Source of the DNA: an uncultured virus (IMG/VR IMGVR_UViG_3300032069_000001)
Taxonomy: Duplodnaviria > Heunggongvirae > Uroviricota > Caudoviricetes
DNA: 64,000 bases
Direction: 5' to 3' (one strand)
IMG/VR virus record: IMGVR_UViG_3300032069_000001
Coordinates: 33,214 to 97,213 of that record
Numbering within the stretch: the stretch's first letter is position 1; each line of letters starts with the position of its first letter. Made by a program: the position numbers and the translations under genes. The notes under the pieces were generated by a model, which saw nothing but the letters and a program-made list of their open reading frames with translations, was not told where the DNA came from and did no database searches. This document shows positions 34,441 to 42,309 of this stretch, piece after piece.

Positions 34441-35418
34441 TTAAGTTACTGTCCGCCATTGACCGTCAACCAATACCTGCTCCTTTCCATCAACTACCCT
34501 TATTTCCCCTTCCTTCACAATATTATTTCTCTTTTCATCTGCTTCCTCTTTAAACTCCTCGCCCTTCTGAAACCAATTCTTAATCTGTGCTCTCGGGTGA
34601 CTTACCAAATGCCCTTTATTATCTATCTTAAGCGGACTACCCATTAAGTAATATTTCCATTTATCAAGCTGTTTAAATAGGTTTAAGGTTGGGTGGTCTG
34701 CTTTTAGACCTTCAAGCATTGGGACATCTATTTCCTCGTCATAAGGATAGTTACTTACTCCCTGCAATAAAGTGAGCTCTCTAATAAGTGGTTGCCTTCT
34801 TTCTTCTGTTATTGTAGGTTTAATATCATCTGTGGTAATGACGGTATCGTTGCCTTTACTTACCTTCTCTTTACTTAACTTAACTTTACTTAACTTAACT
34901 TTAGCTGGAGTGCTCTCCGACTGGTCTCCTACTACTCCCCCACTACTCCCCGATTGTGTAGAGTTTTCCTTACCTAAATCAATATTTATCAGAGGTATAT
35001 CTGTGTCTCCACTACTCCTCCCCGACTGCTCCCCGACTGGTAGCTTACCACTCGCCAACTCCTCTCCGACTATTACCCTACTCTTATCAGTATAGTTGGG
35101 GTATTTCTGCTTTGATGGCTTCTCTATGCGTTGGTGTTTGTGAAAGTTTTTGACATAGATGTAATTCCTATTGTCACTTTCGCTTATAAACACAATATAC
35201 TTTTTCGCATCAGAGAGCTCTTTAATCAAAGCCACAACATTTACCGTTTCGTAGGGAAATAGCTGTGCCTTAATCCATTCTGGTCTATAGGGGAAGGTGT
35301 GAGCGTGGTCATCAGCTATACACCAACTACCGATATAAAGCAGTCTGGCGTAAGGAGATAGTTTAGCGATGCCCTCGTCAAGCCAAAACTCGGGGTCTAT
35401 CATTCTCCTTCGTGCCAT
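34441..35418 (-). CDS. phage replication initiator (replisome organizer)
   Basis: MARRRMIDPEFW...ARLLYIG...ADD N-domain, F.KHQ, central repeats, KVKLSK linker. Confidence 0.85.
   Translation of the reverse strand: MARRRMIDPEFWLDEGIAKLSPYARLLYIGSWCIADDHAHTFPYRPEWIKAQLFPYETVNVVALIKELSDAKKYIVFISESDNRNYIYVKNFHKHQRIEKPSKQKYPNYTDKSRVIVGEELASGKLPVGEQSGRSSGDTDIPLINIDLGKENSTQSGSSGGVVGDQSESTPAKVKLSKVKLSKEKVSKGNDTVITTDDIKPTITEERRQPLIRELTLLQGVSNYPYDEEIDVPMLEGLKADHPTLNLFKQLDKWKYYLMGSPLKIDNKGHLVSHPRAQIKNWFQKGEEFKEEADEKRNNIVKEGEIRVVDGKEQVLVDGQWRTVT
34855..35085. repeat. probable replication origin: iteron-like ACTRCTCCCC(GA) repeats next to an AT-rich TTAAC/TTACT tract
   Basis: copies at about 34931, 34942, 35011 and 35025; AT-rich repeats at 34871-34903; lambda-O-like position inside the initiator gene. 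Confidence 0.6.
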
Positions 35419-35430
35419 TTTAATCCCCCC

Positions 35431-36522
35431 TTATTCTGTAAGTTGATAGGTTTTGCAAGTTACGCAACCCCACCCCTTTACAAAGCCGTAAGGCTTTCCA
35501 GTTTTTGGATTTGTTTTATTTATTACCCCATCTTTCTTAATCATAGGTTGTTTGCACTTTGGACAAATAGGTATTGTGGGTTTCGGTGGCAACTGTTCCT
35601 GTGGTTTATCAAGGTCGTCCAAAGATATTTCTGTCTGTTGGGAAGCTGGTTTCTGTGCTGGCGGTGGCGTTTTATTCTGTGCCGTTTGTGCTGGCGGTGG
35701 CGTTCTTGGTGCTGAAGCAGGTATTTCTGGTTCTTGTTCTGCGTCTGCGGGAAGGTGCTCTGTTTCGGTTTGCTCGGCTTCTTCCTCGCCGTTAGGGAAC
35801 AAGTCCTCTGGTCTCTCATCAGCTTTAGGAAGCAATCCTACGTCTCCTGGCTGTTGTTTTTTTTGTCTCTCCAGCAAAGAAATCATACTTTCATTCAGCT
35901 TCAAATTAAGAACATATATGATTTTTTTTGCTCCTGCGACTTGTGCTTCCTGCGGTTGAATGACAAGGCTTAAAGGAACGCCTGATACTTTTCCGCAGAG
36001 AGCTTTAACCATTGAGATTGACGAGTTGATATTCACTATGGAGTTGTAGCTTGACGTGTCTATTTGCCAGACACCTACACCTTTTACTTCTGGCAATAAG
36101 AACTGGAGATTGGCAACCATACGGCAGGTTTTCTTTACATTCTTTTCAGGGTCGCCGTGCAAATGAACACACGGGCATTTTTTCTCAACCATTTCCCCGC
36201 CCTGCTGAACTTCCATTGCAGTATCTCCGTCTCCCTTGCAAAGAAGTCCTTTGGTCTGACCATATCTTTTATACCATTGCTGAAAGAACTGTGCTTCGTC
36301 CTCTGTTGGAAACATCACGTTCAAAGCTTTTGGTTGCTCCCCAAAAACTTTTTTAAACGCTTCTACCATATTCGCAGGGGTGTTTCCGTCCTCTGCTACT
36401 ACAAAATAGTCAACAGCTTTCGGGTAAGTTACCCCCGACTTCTGCGACAATGCCTTGATGCCGAGATGTATTTTGCCCAATCTCGGCAGTCTCCTTCTCT
36501 CACTTACTCCTTTTATTGGCAT
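35431..36522 (-). CDS. Gp3-like (recombination directionality factor-like) putative strand-annealing protein
   Basis: RLPRLGKIHLG, YPKAVDYF, CKGDG, CPC..C, GVWQIDTSSYNS. Confidence 0.75.
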   Translation of the reverse strand: MPIKGVSERRRLPRLGKIHLGIKALSQKSGVTYPKAVDYFVVAEDGNTPANMVEAFKKVFGEQPKALNVMFPTEDEAQFFQQWYKRYGQTKGLLCKGDGDTAMEVQQGGEMVEKKCPCVHLHGDPEKNVKKTCRMVANLQFLLPEVKGVGVWQIDTSSYNSIVNINSSISMVKALCGKVSGVPLSLVIQPQEAQVAGAKKIIYVLNLKLNESMISLLERQKKQQPGDVGLLPKADERPEDLFPNGEEEAEQTETEHLPADAEQEPEIPASAPRTPPPAQTAQNKTPPPAQKPASQQTEISLDDLDKPQEQLPPKPTIPICPKCKQPMIKKDGVINKTNPKTGKPYGFVKGWGCVTCKTYQLTE

Positions 36523-36688
36523 AGCTTTTCCCCTCCTTTTTTGATTTTGTTGCTTTTAATGCTATAACTATTTTTTCGTATGTTTCTTTTTGCTTTCTTG
36601 TCATTTGTCTCTTATCATTGCCATAGTAAATAGAAAAAGAACCATCTTCGTAATCTATTATTTCTGGCATACGTTCTCCTTTAAAGAT

Positions 36689-36907
36689 TTATTCATTGTA
36701 ATATTTGTCTTGTTCAGCATCTTGCCAACCCAATATATTTACATAGTAAAATTTTTCTATTCTATCTACAACTTTTTCTCCTGCAACATACGACCAGATT
36801 ATAGGTTGAACTAATATTCCAGATAAAAACGCTATGATTAGGATTGAAATATAGATGATTATTAAGCAGAGAAATGTTTTTCCGATTTGTTTGATTATTG
36901 ATTTCAT
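36689..36907 (-). CDS. small membrane protein
   Basis: hydrophobic N-half, AGGAG RBS. Confidence 0.55.
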   Translation of the reverse strand: MKSIIKQIGKTFLCLIIIYISILIIAFLSGILVQPIIWSYVAGEKVVDRIEKFYYVNILGWQDAEQDKYYNE

Positions 36908-37101
36908 TTCGTTCTCCTTGCTTTTTTATTGTATGGTCTTTTGAGTTTTTGTCCGTAATATGGACAGAATTTTAGAAATAGAACAAAAACAAAACATTTA
37001 AGATTGATATAATGAACTGCGATGAATGAGCGGAAGTTTTTAGACCATTGTATTCTTTTGAGTTTGATGTCTCGGATAAATTCTTTGCAACAGTAATTCA
37101 T
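36904..37101 (-). CDS. small hypothetical protein
   Basis: CC...FCPY.G motif. Confidence 0.45.
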   Translation of the reverse strand: MNYCCKEFIRDIKLKRIQWSKNFRSFIAVHYINLKCFVFVLFLKFCPYYGQKLKRPYNKKARRTK

Positions 37102-37130
37102 AAGTCCCCGTTTAGTAGTTAATTTTATTT

Positions 37131-37275
37131 AATCCTTACCTTACCGAACCTTACTTCACTCTGCATAACAAAACCCGACTTTGCAATACCGTAACGCACT
37201 TCACCTCACATCACAATACCAAACCGCACCTGACCTAACCTGACCTGACTTTGCTTCACAATACAACGCATAACC
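37131..37275 (-). ncRNA. phased pentamer array 2 (28 DGY-NN units plus terminal GGATT): putative gapped-code guide RNA
   Basis: minus strand GGTTA TGCGT TGTAT TGTGA AGCAA AGTCA GGTCA GGTTA GGTCA GGTGC GGTTT GGTAT...GGTAA GGTAA GGATT; 27 of 28 units fit DGY-NN; intergenic. Confidence 0.8.
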
Positions 37276-37295
37276 TTAAAATTTTTTATTAGTTC

Positions 37296-37360
37296 AATCC
37301 TTACCTTGCCAAACAATACATCACTTCACTTTACACGACACCACTCTACATCACATTATC
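37296..37360 (-). ncRNA. phased pentamer array 1 (11 DGY-NN units plus terminal GGATT): putative gapped-code guide RNA
   Basis: TGTGA TGTAG AGTGG TGTCG TGTAA AGTGA AGTGA TGTAT TGTTT GGCAA GGTAA GGATT, starting right after the RAMP gene stop codon. Confidence 0.75.
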
Positions 37361-37909
37361 TTAAGATTTAATTAGTTTGAATTGCGTTACTATGAATTTT
37401 CCAAAGCAACCCTTTTTATTGGGTCTCCAATCGCCTATACCTTGATATTTCCCTGCCCTATCCAACGCTTCTTTTAATACTTCCTCTGGTATTTCCTCGT
37501 CGCAAGAAATATTAAAGCTTAATTCCCATTCTTTAAACATAGGTCGGTATGTCATCATTCTCCCTTTTGTTACGGGATTAACCGCCAATATTTTATAAAT
37601 TTCATATTTTTGATTTTTGTGTATTATCGCATCAGGGCTGACCTGAACCATTGACCCCATCATACTTGAATAAGTTTTCTTACCCCTGCCTTTTATTTTT
37701 AAATCCGCACCCGCTCTTATCAGCGATTGCCAAATATGAGTTGACGGCTGATATATTTTTCCGTCTATGCTATACAATTTTTCTAAAGCTTTTTTCTCCT
37801 CATCGGAATTTGGATTTATTATTTTGAGTTTGCTGTCAAATCCGTATTCTGGCGGTTTGTTTTGCAGTAATGCAGTCACTCCTTTTATCGTTACATCGTA
37901 ATCTCTCAT
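37361..37909 (-). CDS. solitary Cas7/RAMP-like RNA-binding protein (Vipr-like)
   Basis: VTIKGVTALL first strand, IYQPSTHIWQSLIRAG, RPMFKEWELSFNI, Gly-rich loop AGKYQGIGDWRPNKKGCFGKF. Confidence 0.8.
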   Translation of the reverse strand: MRDYDVTIKGVTALLQNKPPEYGFDSKLKIINPNSDEEKKALEKLYSIDGKIYQPSTHIWQSLIRAGADLKIKGRGKKTYSSMMGSMVQVSPDAIIHKNQKYEIYKILAVNPVTKGRMMTYRPMFKEWELSFNISCDEEIPEEVLKEALDRAGKYQGIGDWRPNKKGCFGKFIVTQFKLIKS

Positions 37910-37933
37910 CTCCTTATCCTCCTTGTTATGGTT

Positions 37934-38755
37934 TTAGTAATTTACTTTTATTTTTCCACCTTCACAAAATTTCCAAAATCCGCACGACTTTTCCGAACAA
38001 AGATAATTATGCGGGTTCGGATAAAATATTCCCGCTTCAATAGCCCTTACAACTTGAACTAATGTAACTTTAAATGCTTCAATATGGGCTTCTGTTCTGG
38101 TAGTAGGATATTGCGGATATTGCGGTTTCTTGGTGCGAACTAAATAATCCATACGCAATCCTTTTGGTAGCTCTTTGTATTTTTCTTTGTAAGCCATTGA
38201 ATACATTGTGAGCTGTCCATCTTTATTGATTGTATCCTGCGTAGGGCTTTTCTTTGAAGTCTTGTGGTCAATAATAAAATCCTTGTCGTCTATCAAGTCT
38301 ATTCTCCCAACAATCGGTTTGCTTATTCCAGGAATGATTAAATTATCGGGAAACGGTTCCTCAACGACTAAAGGTTGAATTGTCGGTGCTACAAGTTCGT
38401 GGTAATTTGTGATGAGTTTTATGCCCTCATCAAGCATACTGTCTTTTGTTTCGTCCTCTGCGAATTCCATACCAACATTTTTCTTAAGGTTTAAATCCCA
38501 TTGATTTGCCCAAGCTCCCTGCACTTTAGAAAGCTCTACGTCTTGATGGCTCTCAATTTTCTGCTTAAAATTGTATTCAAGTGCTTCGTGAGTTGTGCTA
38601 CCGAAAACCAATGCGGAAGGCGGTGGTATTTTATACCCCAATATATACCTGAAAAGATATTGGTATGCACATCGGATAAAAGTATTTATTTGGGAGAAGC
38701 TGTAGTGGTCTCTTGCTTCAAACAAGTCGTCTAAACTTAACTCCTCGTCTGCCAT
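37934..38755 (-). CDS. Cas4/RecB-like PD-(D/E)XK exonuclease
   Basis: SFSQI..C, GSTTHEALE, GRID, IDHK, QLTMY, C-terminal Cys triad (Fe-S staple). Confidence 0.9.
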   Translation of the reverse strand: MADEELSLDDLFEARDHYSFSQINTFIRCAYQYLFRYILGYKIPPPSALVFGSTTHEALEYNFKQKIESHQDVELSKVQGAWANQWDLNLKKNVGMEFAEDETKDSMLDEGIKLITNYHELVAPTIQPLVVEEPFPDNLIIPGISKPIVGRIDLIDDKDFIIDHKTSKKSPTQDTINKDGQLTMYSMAYKEKYKELPKGLRMDYLVRTKKPQYPQYPTTRTEAHIEAFKVTLVQVVRAIEAGIFYPNPHNYLCSEKSCGFWKFCEGGKIKVNY

Positions 38756-38791
38756 ATTTAATTCTCCTTCTGGTTATAAATTGTAGTGTTC

Positions 38792-38820
38792 ATTCTATAC
38801 TTTTTGTTTTTTATTGTCAA
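38792..38820 (-). promoter_or_regulatory. promoter for the exonuclease / RAMP / array unit
   Basis: TTGACA-17nt-TAGAAT. Confidence 0.75.
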
Positions 38821-39002
38821 GCTTTTTTCTTGGCAACTTTTTGTTCTGCTTCATAGACCTTGAGATAAGTTTCCAATGCCATTCCTACAAGCTTTGACAT
38901 TGAGACGCCCTTCTCCTCTTTAATCGCTTCAAGCTTCTCCAACACGGGCAATGTATCCTCGTTGAAGTATATCGTGAGCGTTCCCCCTTTTTGAATTGCC
39001 AT
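38817..39002 (-). CDS. ribbon-helix-helix (CopG-like) regulator
   Basis: TLTIYF strand followed by two helices with GVSMSKLV. Confidence 0.75.
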   Translation of the reverse strand: MAIQKGGTLTIYFNEDTLPVLEKLEAIKEEKGVSMSKLVGMALETYLKVYEAEQKVAKKKA

Positions 39003-39043
39003 AATCAACACCCCCTTTCTTATACTATAATTTCATATAATAG

Positions 39044-39072
39044 ATTATAACACAATATCTTACGTTTGTCAA
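39044..39072 (-). promoter_or_regulatory. consensus promoter for the RHH gene
   Basis: TTGACA-17nt-TATAAT with extended TG. Confidence 0.85.
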
Positions 39073-39737
39073 GAGAATAATTCAAGCTGTGTTGCGTTTG
39101 GTTTTGGCTTGAAAATGCTTATAAAATCAGCGTATTCCAAGATGTCCCTGTAAGCAATAGAGTAATGAGTTTTTTTGCAAACATACTGGATTGCTCCTTG
39201 CCAGTTGTAAACAGGTTCTCCTTCCTTGTGTATCTTAACCGCAGGGTTTACTCCATAAACAAAGTCGCTCATCTTTATCCACCCTGCTATCCAAAGCTGT
39301 TCGGGGTGTCTATCATCATTAACCTTAAGATGAGTAAAAAGAATAATATCTATAGTGATTTTTTTCTTTTCATAGGTTATAGCATCATAGTTATTTTCCA
39401 TTGTGGCGGAAGGTGGATTTTTCCACGTATTGTTTTTAACATCAATATTCCTTCCATTTATTGATAAATCCACTTTAGACCGCTTTTCATACATTCTCCC
39501 CACTTTTAACTTTTCGTTCTTTTCTATGTAGTCTGCAACAAGCTTTTGAGCCAACCAACCGTTAATACCGTCTTTTCTGGCGTTTTCATCGTGCCATTTA
39601 TAATCTGTTGCCTTCTGCATAATCTCTGTAGCCTCTTTAATGGCTTCTGGTGTTATGTCTATCTTAACATAATGCCTATGTTTTTTTGGCGTATCTATTT
39701 CCTTTTCTGCTGATACGTCGTTCAACTTTTCGTCCAT
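39069..39737 (-). CDS. restriction-endonuclease-fold (PD-(D/E)XK-like) protein
   Basis: GWLAQ..VDL..IDVK..IAGW pattern. Confidence 0.55.
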   Translation of the reverse strand: MDEKLNDVSAEKEIDTPKKHRHYVKIDITPEAIKEATEIMQKATDYKWHDENARKDGINGWLAQKLVADYIEKNEKLKVGRMYEKRSKVDLSINGRNIDVKNNTWKNPPSATMENNYDAITYEKKKITIDIILFTHLKVNDDRHPEQLWIAGWIKMSDFVYGVNPAVKIHKEGEPVYNWQGAIQYVCKKTHYSIAYRDILEYADFISIFKPKPNATQLELFS

Positions 39738-41306
39738 ATCCTTCCCTCCACTCATAGAACTTCCTTTCCAGATGGAATTGAAGCCACGATAAGAAACCGA
39801 TTATTAAGAATATTGCGAGTAATGCGAAACTTCCTAAAATAAACCAACCAAGAACTTTCAATACTATCATTGCGTTACCTCCTTCAAGGTTTCATCAATC
39901 AGTCGTTTTAGGGTCTCCAAGTCCTTAATGCTTCCCAATTTCGCAACCACCTCTTTATCATCAGGAAATATAATAGATAAAGTAAAGGTGCTTAAGGAAA
40001 CTGTGTTATACAAAATCTTAAAAATAGTCCTGACTTTCCTGACGGAAACCTTTGTGAATAGTTTTTCGCTCATTTTGGGGTCTCCTTTTCGCTGTCTAAT
40101 TTACTTTGCCAAACAGCAACTCCATCGTGAACAATTTTTCTATGACAGTTACCATCTGGACAAACAAAGAATTTACCTCTATCCATATAACCATCAGTAA
40201 TGTCCATTTGCACAGCTCCCTTTTTTCCACACACAATACATATATTATCATCTTTTTTGCTCATTGACTTTCTCCTCGTGGCTCTCTATTATAGTGCCTG
40301 CTATTTGGAGCCCATCAGTCGTTACATCAACGCTGGCTATTTCTACTTTGTCTATTACAGTTATAACAGTTTGTTTTGGCAATACTAAAGTAACAGAGGA
40401 AAACTTTAAAAGACATTGATACAAATTCCATTGTATCTTTTCACAACATTTATCGCATATTATTCCGATTACACTATCCCCTACTTCTTGGTTTCTTTTG
40501 CATATCTTGCACTTTATTAACATCTTTCCTCCTACTCCTTTTTTAATAGTTTCACAATTTGTTCTAATTGTTCTACATACATCTTACTGCCATTGTTCAT
40601 TATCTTTTGTTTATCTGCACCCTCATTGAACCCATTTGCTTTACCAACATAAGCCTTGCGTTCTCCTGTGGGGTTCTCAATCACAACTATTCCGATTGTT
40701 TCCAGTCCACTAAACCAAAATGTATCTATTATCATACAACACCTCCCTTACTTCTTTTTCGTTTTTATTTTCTTTACAAACTTGCAAAGAATGGTTCTTA
40801 CACTTATCGTGTCTCCCTTAAAACCTCTATCAACATTTGCTATGCTAATGAAATTTGCCTTGCCTTCAACAATCTTAACGTCAACAAATTCATCTTTGCT
40901 TGTATCAACATTGCCAAGTAACTTTGCTGTGAACTTACCCTTTCTGCTATCGTTTATTTTCCACACCTCGCCCTTTTTTAGTTTCATCTGTCCCTCCTTC
41001 TATCTTAAAATTTTTTACATTCATCTTAAAATAATAATGACCGCCAACATAGGTTTTACGCCAGAACAAAGCAACAAACAAAGGATTTTTCCAAAGAGCA
41101 CGAATAACATCTTCGTTCCCGCTCCACCCGCCTGTATGAAGTTCAAGCCAGAATACGTTCTTTTTGCCTTTGAGTTTAAATCCCCACTCTGGCGTCCACC
41201 AATGATTTTCTATGTAATCAACAAGCTCCATAACGCCCTGTGTCATTATATCCCAATCAACTATTATTTGGAGCTGTTTCTCTGTCGGATACTCGTTCCC
41301 TATCAT
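39676..41306 (-). other. cluster of seven small hypothetical CDSs (39676-39870, 39867-40073, 40070-40264, 40248-40523, 40532-40735, 40748-40987, 40947-41306)
   Basis: coupled ORFs with GGAGG-type RBSs; the 40947 ORF contains ELHTGGWSGNE. Confidence 0.6.
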
Positions 41307-42309
41307 TGTGTTTCCTCCCACTTTCTTTATCCTTTTCTCTGTCTTTTTCTTTGTATTCATTACTTCTTAACTTACCATCATAGCCGAGATACATTCCTTC
41401 GGGTGCAAATAAAGGATTTTTGTCGGTTGCAGAATGTTTAAGCTTATCTGTAATATGCAAGTATCTTTGCGTTGTAATCAACGAACTATGTCCTGCCTGT
41501 TCCTTTATTTCCATCAGATTTGCTCCGTGCGTAAGTTCAAGCGTGAAGCACGTATGTCGTAACGTATGAACGGACAGTCTTTTCTTTTTCCTTTTTTTAA
41601 GATTTGCCAAGTCAAGATAATGGCTAACCATACGTTGAACAGCTTGCGAATTCATCGGTTTCTTATATTGCGTAAGAAAAATATGTTCGTCCACTATACT
41701 GCTTTTATAGCTTGGCTCTTTTCTAAATTCCGCTATGTATTCTCGTATCATTTTAGCAAGCTCTGATTGAACTTTGAGCACTCTCTCCTTATTGCCTTTG
41801 CCTAATACATATAGAACGTCCACACCTTGCTGTGTAGTAAAATCTTTTATTTTTAAATTCACTATTTCGCTTACCCTTAACCCGCACCCAAGTAGAATAT
41901 TTACCATAACCCAATCTCTTGTTTTTGCTTCTGGTTTCAACATTTTCCATTGCTCAACTACCCTTAAGAGTTCTTTTGCTTCATTCATACTTAATACAGC
42001 GGGTTCCTCCTCTTGTTGTTTTGGTAACGCAAGAAACTCCGCAGGATTAGTTCCCAAATATTTCATTCTGTAGCAGAATGTCATAAAGGACTTTATGACA
42101 TTAAGCTTTGTCCTCTGTGATGAAATTTTATGTCTTGATATTGCCAACATTGCCTTAAACGTTACGAGGTCATCAAAAACAATAGAGCCAATGTCTTTGT
42201 TGCCAATATAATTTAAAAACAGTTTTATCTGGCTGACATAATATTTCTTTGTTGTGCCAGAGTTTAAATTCGCAATAAACTGATTGATTATGATGTCGTT
42301 TGTGTTCAC
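41257..42309 (-). CDS. XerC/D-like tyrosine recombinase
   Basis: GLRVSE, GKGNKER, HTLRH, GHSS, TQRY. Confidence 0.95.
   Translation of the reverse strand: MNTNDIIINQFIANLNSGTTKKYYVSQIKLFLNYIGNKDIGSIVFDDLVTFKAMLAISRHKISSQRTKLNVIKSFMTFCYRMKYLGTNPAEFLALPKQQEEEPAVLSMNEAKELLRVVEQWKMLKPEAKTRDWVMVNILLGCGLRVSEIVNLKIKDFTTQQGVDVLYVLGKGNKERVLKVQSELAKMIREYIAEFRKEPSYKSSIVDEHIFLTQYKKPMNSQAVQRMVSHYLDLANLKKRKKKRLSVHTLRHTCFTLELTHGANLMEIKEQAGHSSLITTQRYLHITDKLKHSATDKNPLFAPEGMYLGYDGKLRSNEYKEKDREKDKESGRKHNDRERVSDRETAPNNS

Follow-up and report, generated by a model that had tools for sequence, protein, structure and literature searches.

A distant phage VIPR locus with a pentamer array that resembles the catalytic region of lexA

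The DNA analysed here (64,000 bases, "the window" in what follows) corresponds to bases 33214-97213 of a virus record that is 97,213 bases long and has direct terminal repeats. Genes for a sheath, a baseplate and a large terminase identify a tailed phage; among the 15 best records listed, the large terminase shows at most 37% identity to terminases of Bacillota phages. Reading along the minus strand, we found a nuclease gene, a 182-aa ORF (vipr), a 259-base intergenic segment (37102-37360), some small ORFs, a Gp3-like gene and a replication initiator, so that vipr is surrounded by replication and recombination genes (Table 1). The intergenic segment holds, on the same strand, two period-5 arrays with the unit D-G-Y-N-N, the first of which starts 6 bases past the vipr stop. 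A blastn search of 35500-39500 against phage genomes returned no match, and scanning 36850-38000 for sigma-70 promoters and terminators turned up nothing better than in shuffles and no terminator-like site.

Table 1. Position of the features discussed in the text (window coordinates unless a locus is named).
Feature	Position	Strand	Remarks
65-aa ORF	36904..37101	-	Directly 3' of the arrays; absent from relatives' loci
Array 2, 3' tail	37102..37135	-	Reaches the start codon of the next ORF
Array 2, whole	37136-37275	-	28 pentamers, read from 37275 downwards
Array 2, units 26-28	37136..37150	-	GGTTC GGTAA GGTAA; lexA match frequency 0.0 each in 29 independent genes
Array 2, units 10-25 (block B)	37151..37230	-	16-unit guide; lexA codons A-L-I-D/E-D/E-E-A-T-I-K-R-F-Y-x-E-K
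Array 2, units 1-9 (block A)	37231..37275	-	Fits the YVIVKQQ-encoding lexA strand weakly and out of register
Array 1, 3' tail	37276..37300	-	GGATT, then AT-rich; start common to the array 2 tail
Array 1 (vrRNA 1)	37301..37355	-	11 units; NN = GA AG GG CG AA GA GA AT TT AA AA
vipr gene, 182-aa RAMP-like (Cas7-like) protein	37361..37909	-	AlphaFold2, Foldseek, tblastn/BLASTP
PD-(D/E)XK nuclease gene	37934..38755	-	24 bases upstream of vipr; Pfam PF12705, 4.5e-27
15-base repeat, 3.3 copies	34855-34909	-	Inside the replication-initiator ORF 34441-35418
Tyrosine recombinase gene	41257-42309	-	PF00589, 110.6 bits, N-terminal SAM-like domain; 3.3 kb upstream of vipr
Type II hammerheads in relatives' loci	L011 1075-1132; L012 3147-3204; L015 479-536		Downstream of Vipr homologues, 36-41% identity
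Array 1 candidate target, N-terminal sulfotransferase domain	L125-L133, e.g. L128 12-1805	-	

For the nuclease, as a neighbour of vipr, an accessory role is only possible. It is not a conserved vipr partner, because no homologue was detected at E ≤ 1e-3 in the 15 loci searched (those of the relatives, L003-L016, plus the SUSP1 locus, L017). Indeed, none of the six ORFs neighbouring vipr had a homologue in the relatives' loci, and no conserved accessory (vap) gene was found; the 65-aa ORF that follows the arrays belongs to no Pfam or PHROG family.

Two further elements of the region deserve mention. The tyrosine recombinase may mean that the phage is temperate, or the enzyme may resolve dimers; no serine recombinase was found in the record. 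The short repeat within the replication-initiator ORF reads as AGTTA/AGTAA pentamers on the strand of the vrRNA arrays and fits D-G-T-N-N, but it is coding, and it may represent iterons, a coding repeat or a decoy-like site.

The AlphaFold2 model of the 182-aa protein had a pLDDT of 92, and a Foldseek comparison of this model with the PDB yielded 130 matches at E ≤ 1e-3. The best was a type VII Cas7 chain (8z4j_J, 1.7e-7), followed by Csm3 chains; with Cas7, Csm3 and Cmr4 chains as the top PDB matches, the predicted structure has the RAMP fold of a Vipr protein, built from an RRM core, a G-loop and a thumb. The sequence itself showed 39% identity, over residues 96-174, to the phiSUSP1 CDS ALH47069.1 (E 1e-15, tblastn/BLASTP). 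It falls into PHROG family phrog_4652, with some 40 clusters of homologues, and matches no Pfam family.

The accessible text of a cryo-EM preprint (10.64898/2026.04.26.720927) names the residues that contact the fixed bases of the RNA, namely a thumb Arg, a G-loop Asp-Trp-Arg and a His for G1, and ALH47069.1 has H17, R138, D177, W178 and R179 at the positions numbered there. In our alignment, R122, D160, W161 and R162 of the window protein correspond to SUSP1 R138 (thumb) and D177, W178 and R179 (G-loop). Among 40 family members these residues are conserved in 40, 38, 33 and 39 sequences, respectively. The equivalent of SUSP1 His17 is an asparagine (N17), as in 37 of the 40 members; the replacement of this residue, which reads the first G, may go together with the degenerate first base of the repeats described below.

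VIPR systems were described in bioRxiv preprints of 2026. According to the available parts of the main preprint (10.64898/2026.04.26.720920), a phage RAMP-like protein, Vipr, binds vrRNAs made of alternating GGY and NN; the NN pair with double-stranded DNA, one base being skipped per pair, usually the codon wobble. Targets occur on either strand, binding represses transcription, and each vrRNA comprises 9-16 repeats followed by a conserved structured 3' tail. Because the window protein is predicted to fold like Cas7-type RAMPs and is homologous to SUSP1 Vipr, with the RNA-binding residues kept, the locus is, as judged from sequence and model, a VIPR system consisting of a Vipr protein and vrRNAs. 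It is a new, distant member of the family, and the new point is the predicted target.

The pentamers of array 2 are regular in composition. C never occurs as the first base, which may be G, T or A; a G occupies the second position in 27 of the 28 units, unit 17 (GTTAC) being the exception, and the third position holds T or C. The NN of units 27 and 28 are both AA, and GGYAA GGTAA GGATT ends both arrays. Units 26-28 of array 2 are probably a constant 3' end and not guide, and the last two units of array 1 probably belong to the same constant end. No tail occurs between units 9 and 10 of array 2. With its 28 units, array 2 stands against the 9-16 per vrRNA given in the available text of the preprint (10.64898/2026.04.26.720920), a range that accommodates array 1.

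Folding of the two tails gave no significant structure (z of -0.41 for array 1 and 0.33 for array 2). Across the whole 97,213-base record, only these two long arrays were present, the other runs comprising 7-9 units with one bad unit allowed. In the window, Rfam assigned no family, and Tandem Repeats Finder reported no repeat of period 25 or more, the longest period being 23.

Some other identities of the locus were considered and set aside. We saw no repeat-spacer array and no other cas genes of a CRISPR-Cas system, and the neighbours are replication and recombination genes. A TRAP-like site, in which a beta-sandwich ring protein binds triplet repeats spaced by 2-3 nt, would have a similar repeat anatomy; here, however, the gene next to the repeats encodes a RAMP, and the message held by the spacers is gene-specific. 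A G-quadruplex or R-loop element was dropped after the protein fold and the VIPR literature had been taken into account.

GGYNN arrays directly follow the vipr homologue in 10 of 14 viral loci, whose Vipr proteins share 33-61% identity with that of the window. The other four loci comprise one with a purine-rich variant, one with few units and two with none within 420 bases. In the variant (L009, 3040-3420, 3' of a homologue with 39% identity), GGA-rich, purine-rich modules replace the GGYNN arrays; each module ends in a hairpin and a T-run, and the whole is repeated about four times. The two loci without arrays (L013 and L014, 33% identity, on contigs of 4 kb and 188 kb) show only a hairpin in the 420 bases after the stop, and may lack arrays or carry them at another place.

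In three loci a type II hammerhead (Rfam Hammerhead_II, RF02276; 40-42 bits against a threshold of 37) lies between arrays, and the arrays would therefore be RNA that gets cut apart. The L010 locus (2150-2440) has three GGTNN arrays, each preceded by the same hairpin of about 12 bp with a GAAA loop, which may be a processing signal that replaces the ribozyme. A third array is found upstream of vipr in the closest well-covered relative (L005, 2406-2470), and SUSP1 has one likewise (L017, 1484-1548).

A preliminary description of this DNA had listed the NN series of array 2 for units 1-26 (37146-37275) and proposed that units 10-25, taken as codon positions 1 and 2, spell the region around the catalytic lysine of LexA. 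A script parse returned exactly the same series, and the decoding proved correct (A-L/F-I/M-D/E-D/E-D/E-A-T-I/M-K/N-R-F/L-Y-R/S-D/E-K/N). The Escherichia coli segment quoted for comparison was also right: K-12 lexA (RefSeq) encodes an S at position 119 and a K at position 156, the latter within VTVKR. This K156, the catalytic Lys, aligns with the K encoded at unit 19.

We then carried out the pattern search that had been proposed together with that reading, using shuffled controls. The seed consisted of units 14-22 (9 units, 18 specified bases) and was scanned in 185,579 species genomes, one per species. It occurred exactly at 69 places, 57 of them in frame and on the sense strand in lexA genes; put differently, 57 of the 63 seed-match ORFs of at least 60 aa matched the TIGR00498 lexA model at E ≤ 1e-5. 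The matches unrelated to lexA or S24 numbered 11-12, and about 25 chance matches were expected from dinucleotide frequencies. One further LexA-like ORF (L067), truncated to 52 aa and too short for the model scan, brings the LexA-type matches to 58; by their genome records, 38 of these are Bacillota and the rest are spread over several phyla. In a Nitrospirales sequence (L052, 121-146), an S24-like frame has a stop codon right after the seed-matched motif, which may reflect a broken gene or a sequencing error. One matched protein (L091) was compared with structures and matched PDB LexA 3k2z at 2.5e-43.

Longer stretches of the guide matched as well. Units 10-22 were found exactly in two species genomes, with 6.7e-4 expected, and in three metagenome contigs, always within a full-length LexA. 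The best targets agreed with the guide in 15 of 16 units and 31 of 32 bases, in frame and on the sense strand (L044, from Thermohalobacter berrensis, L088 and L089); the number of chance matches to at least 15 of 16 units expected in the species-genome collection (596 billion bases, both strands) is 4.6e-5. At 94% of NN, the best match compares with the threshold of at least 80% that the available text of the preprint (10.64898/2026.04.26.720920) sets for a natural target. No perfect 16/16 target was found in the three collections scanned (viral, species-genome and metagenome contigs), unit 23 (AG) never being matched.

Since lexA genes are mutually homologous, the 57 matches do not represent 57 independent events, and the case rests on the expectation for the best match and on shuffles. 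The latter were run on an independent set of loci, chosen with no regard to the guide. A lexA model was searched in 201 genomes spread evenly over the phylum of T. berrensis, 166 of which scored above the cut-off; the 30 best-scoring loci were kept, and L091 was dropped as it came from the T. berrensis genome itself, leaving 29. On these 3.6-kb loci the best placement of the guide matched 9-13 of 16 units (mean 11.1), and in 29 of 29 it was the homologous motif in the open frame. In 300 shuffles of the unit order, the mean was 6.26 (standard deviation of the means 0.13) and no score exceeded 9.

The spacing of the guide was equally distinctive. A skip of one base gave the mean best score of 11.1/16, whereas skips of 0, 2 and 3 bases gave 6.2, 6.0 and 6.3, respectively. 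The idea of a gapped guide that pairs with DNA and not mRNA, with two bases paired and one skipped at the wobble, had been put forward from the letters of the array and coincides with the published VIPR rule; the one-base skip thus applies also to a Vipr only distantly related to that of SUSP1 and to repeats whose first base is degenerate. The vrRNAs of relatives (17, including the four of SUSP1) scored no better than their own shuffles on 95 loci that contain lexA. In all lexA matches the NN equal the sense strand; the pairing partner of the RNA would thus be the template strand, as had been anticipated. Overall, the resemblance of the guide to lexA is far beyond chance, and the proposed LexA target is supported by both the seed search and the independent set.

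Matters are less simple for units 1-9. Contiguous extension of the lexA match into these units fails, with a mean of 0.14 matches at offset 0. When 165 offsets were compared, the highest mean in the independent set, 3.14 of 9 units, came from an offset that places the units 24 bases (8 codons) further upstream than the contiguous position, over the YVIVKQQ codons. The runner-up had a mean of 1.69, and 18 of 5000 shuffles reached 3.14. In the seed-selected set, this offset of 8 codons was the best in 30 of 57 loci, and single genes matched up to 6 of 9 units. The preliminary description had assigned units 1-7 to YVIVKQQ. The offset scan supports this only in part: it does single out that segment, but with a shift of 8 codons relative to units 10-25 and with no match at any time for units 4, 8 and 9. 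The match of units 1-9 to lexA is real but weak and out of register.

Units 1-9 might represent a further guide that abuts the first and addresses lexA 24 bp upstream, or they might be what remains after eight repeats were deleted from within a once contiguous guide. Staggered arrays, with one vrRNA ending where the next begins, are described in the available text of the VIPR preprint (10.64898/2026.04.26.720920), and a pair of such guides, with about 9-10 and 16 units, would fit its range of 9-16.

Array 1 did not match lexA beyond shuffles. Its nine-unit seed had 10 viral matches, eight in frame in one family of proteins of about 570 aa with a sulfotransferase domain and two unrelated. The eight, coming from related contigs, count as one independent event, and at a per-position probability of 2.5e-11 a few chance matches are to be expected in a collection of such size. 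In the stretches compared, the sulfotransferase contigs shared no gene with this phage. With support at the level of chance, the sulfotransferase protein is a lead and no more.

Our main reading, to which we give a probability of roughly 75%, is that this Vipr and vrRNA system carries in units 10-25 a guide that binds the lexA template strand and so blocks transcription of the gene. Family membership, repeat anatomy and the in-frame lexA match with a one-base skip were established here; filament formation, binding to double-stranded DNA and repression are taken from the VIPR preprints, the accessible text of which reports them only for the SUSP1 and Pseudomonas fulva systems. By this scheme, the Cas7-like protein would polymerise on the repeat RNA with one protomer per pentamer, holding the fixed D-G-Y bases and exposing each NN. 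The exposed NN would pair with one DNA strand, every third target base being skipped, and the complex formed on units 10-25 would sit on the lexA template strand within the coding region, at the catalytic-lysine codons. Synonymous changes in lexA could not escape such a guide, an argument about wobble positions that is already in print, as far as the accessible part of that preprint goes (10.64898/2026.10.15.759431).

By analogy with SUSP1, binding would block lexA transcription, and the full-length lexA mRNA would not be made. LexA lost to RecA-stimulated self-cleavage would then not be replaced, and the SOS genes would stay derepressed during infection. Both the choice of the host's own lexA as the target and the switching-on of SOS are our inference. 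Possible gains for the phage would include more recombination and repair, delayed division, and induction of LexA-dependent resident elements. The broader statement, that a phage VIPR silences the master SOS repressor gene of its host and that the 28-unit array may hold two abutting guides, stands in our opinion at even odds.

A direct regulation of the phage by LexA is unsupported, because SOS boxes were not significantly enriched in the window (2 against 0.85 expected, with a short Firmicute consensus). Some points speak against the main reading: the lack of a 16/16 target, the 28 units of array 2, the tails without predicted structure and the failure to find a conserved vap gene. Moreover, if the phage is temperate, as the tyrosine recombinase may indicate, constitutive silencing of lexA would be costly, which also counts against it.

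Besides host lexA, the preliminary description had considered a CI-like repressor of a competitor, so that the guide would be aimed at a LexA/CI-like S24 repressor of a competing prophage or mobile element in the same host. The accessible text of one preprint (10.64898/2026.04.26.720920) does report that vrRNAs of the P. fulva VIPR clade concentrate on prophage lysis-lysogeny regulators, and the sole seed match in viral contigs was a phage repressor with XRE-HTH and S24 domains; in addition, no perfect chromosomal lexA target was found. Yet that viral repressor matches only 10 of 28 units, and the 10-unit and 16-unit patterns each had 0 matches in 2.9 million viral contigs, as opposed to 57 lexA matches in bacteria. 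The units flanking the seed (A-L-I before it, E-K after it) fit canonical LexA, and the matched gene was the sole TIGR00498 gene above the cut-off in all five genomes checked. The phage itself offers neither a self-target nor an S24 gene, in keeping with the earlier statement that the window has no LexA-like gene. On balance, canonical chromosomal lexA is favoured and a mobile repressor seems unlikely.

A different arrangement, in which array 2 is one 26-unit guide to a contiguous 78-bp target in a putative LexA-like gene whose hairpin between the two matched strands is 8 codons shorter, would explain why blocks A and B fit one gene, and in the expected order, with no tail between them. We consider it quite improbable, given that the junction pattern (units 5-14) had 0 matches in viral contigs and that units 1-9 were rarely best contiguously in the 57 seed-selected and 29 independent loci, with units 8 and 9 never matching. 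A chance likeness to lexA noticed after the fact, or a decayed guide without a present target, is very improbable. In favour of such a view, the match had first been spotted by eye, one mismatch remains in the best target and block A is degenerate. Against it stand the 4.6e-5 expectation and the 94% NN agreement, and it was this guide that stood out in each of the controls, whether by shuffling, by skip length or with other guides.

Returning to the silencing of host lexA, its interest lies in the kind of gene concerned. In the available text of the preprints, VIPR has so far been tied to conflicts among phages, satellites and prophages and to decoy sites, the latter located in REP elements of host genomes. 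LexA and SOS are not mentioned in the available text of 10.64898/2026.04.26.720920, 10.64898/2026.04.26.720927, 10.64898/2026.10.15.759431 and 10.64898/2026.10.21.760802, supplementary target tables aside. A guide on the lexA catalytic region would add a new target class, a core host regulator, and, if true, would mean that a virus reprograms a regulatory network of its host by means of a guide RNA. It raises the question of a phage that locks SOS on by stopping LexA resynthesis, and of what it gains thereby. The match between guide and lexA is also a handle for finding the host.

The closest known counterpart is the type II VIPR of SUSP1. Both systems have a Cas7-like Vipr with the thumb Arg and the G-loop Asp-Trp-Arg, and pentamer RNAs on the same strand that adjoin the gene; in both, the NN match coding DNA with the wobble skipped, and the SUSP1 arrays too hold TGT and AGT units. 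The two differ in that the 39% identity covers only the C-terminal 80 residues, His17 is Asn here and the first repeat G is degenerate. Here, moreover, the arrays directly follow vipr with no vap gene between, array 2 has 28 units, and the tails are AT-rich without predicted structure, whereas the SUSP1 tail is structured according to the available text of the preprint. The predicted target is a cellular regulator gene in place of a satellite.

The accessible parts of the preprints also describe non-canonical arrays, YNNNG (10.64898/2026.04.26.720920, Methods) and WGT/NN (10.64898/2026.10.21.760802), which resemble ours in the degenerate first fixed base and the adjoining Vipr-like fold; for these, the accessible passages describe motifs and folds but give no targets. 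Hammerhead-interspersed VIPR systems (types I and V of the preprint, in its available text) are echoed by the three relatives with type II hammerheads (L011, L012 and L015), whereas the window has no Rfam match and its arrays are parted only by a 25-base AT-rich tail.

With the Cas7 filaments of class 1 CRISPR systems (type III Csm3/Cmr4, type VII Cas7), the locus shares the fold and, as far as the accessible preprint text on VIPR filaments goes, a guide-RNA filament with periodic unpaired positions. The window, in contrast, lacks a repeat-spacer array, further cas genes and an adaptation module, and the VIPR period is 5 nt with 2 paired, as against 6 with 5 paired. Finally, gp7 of the tectivirus GIL01 is an example of a phage protein that manipulates LexA. 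Phages of the GIL01 type and the one described here would both use the SOS repressor as a lever, but in the former the LexA protein is acted on, whereas here the gene is predicted to be silenced.
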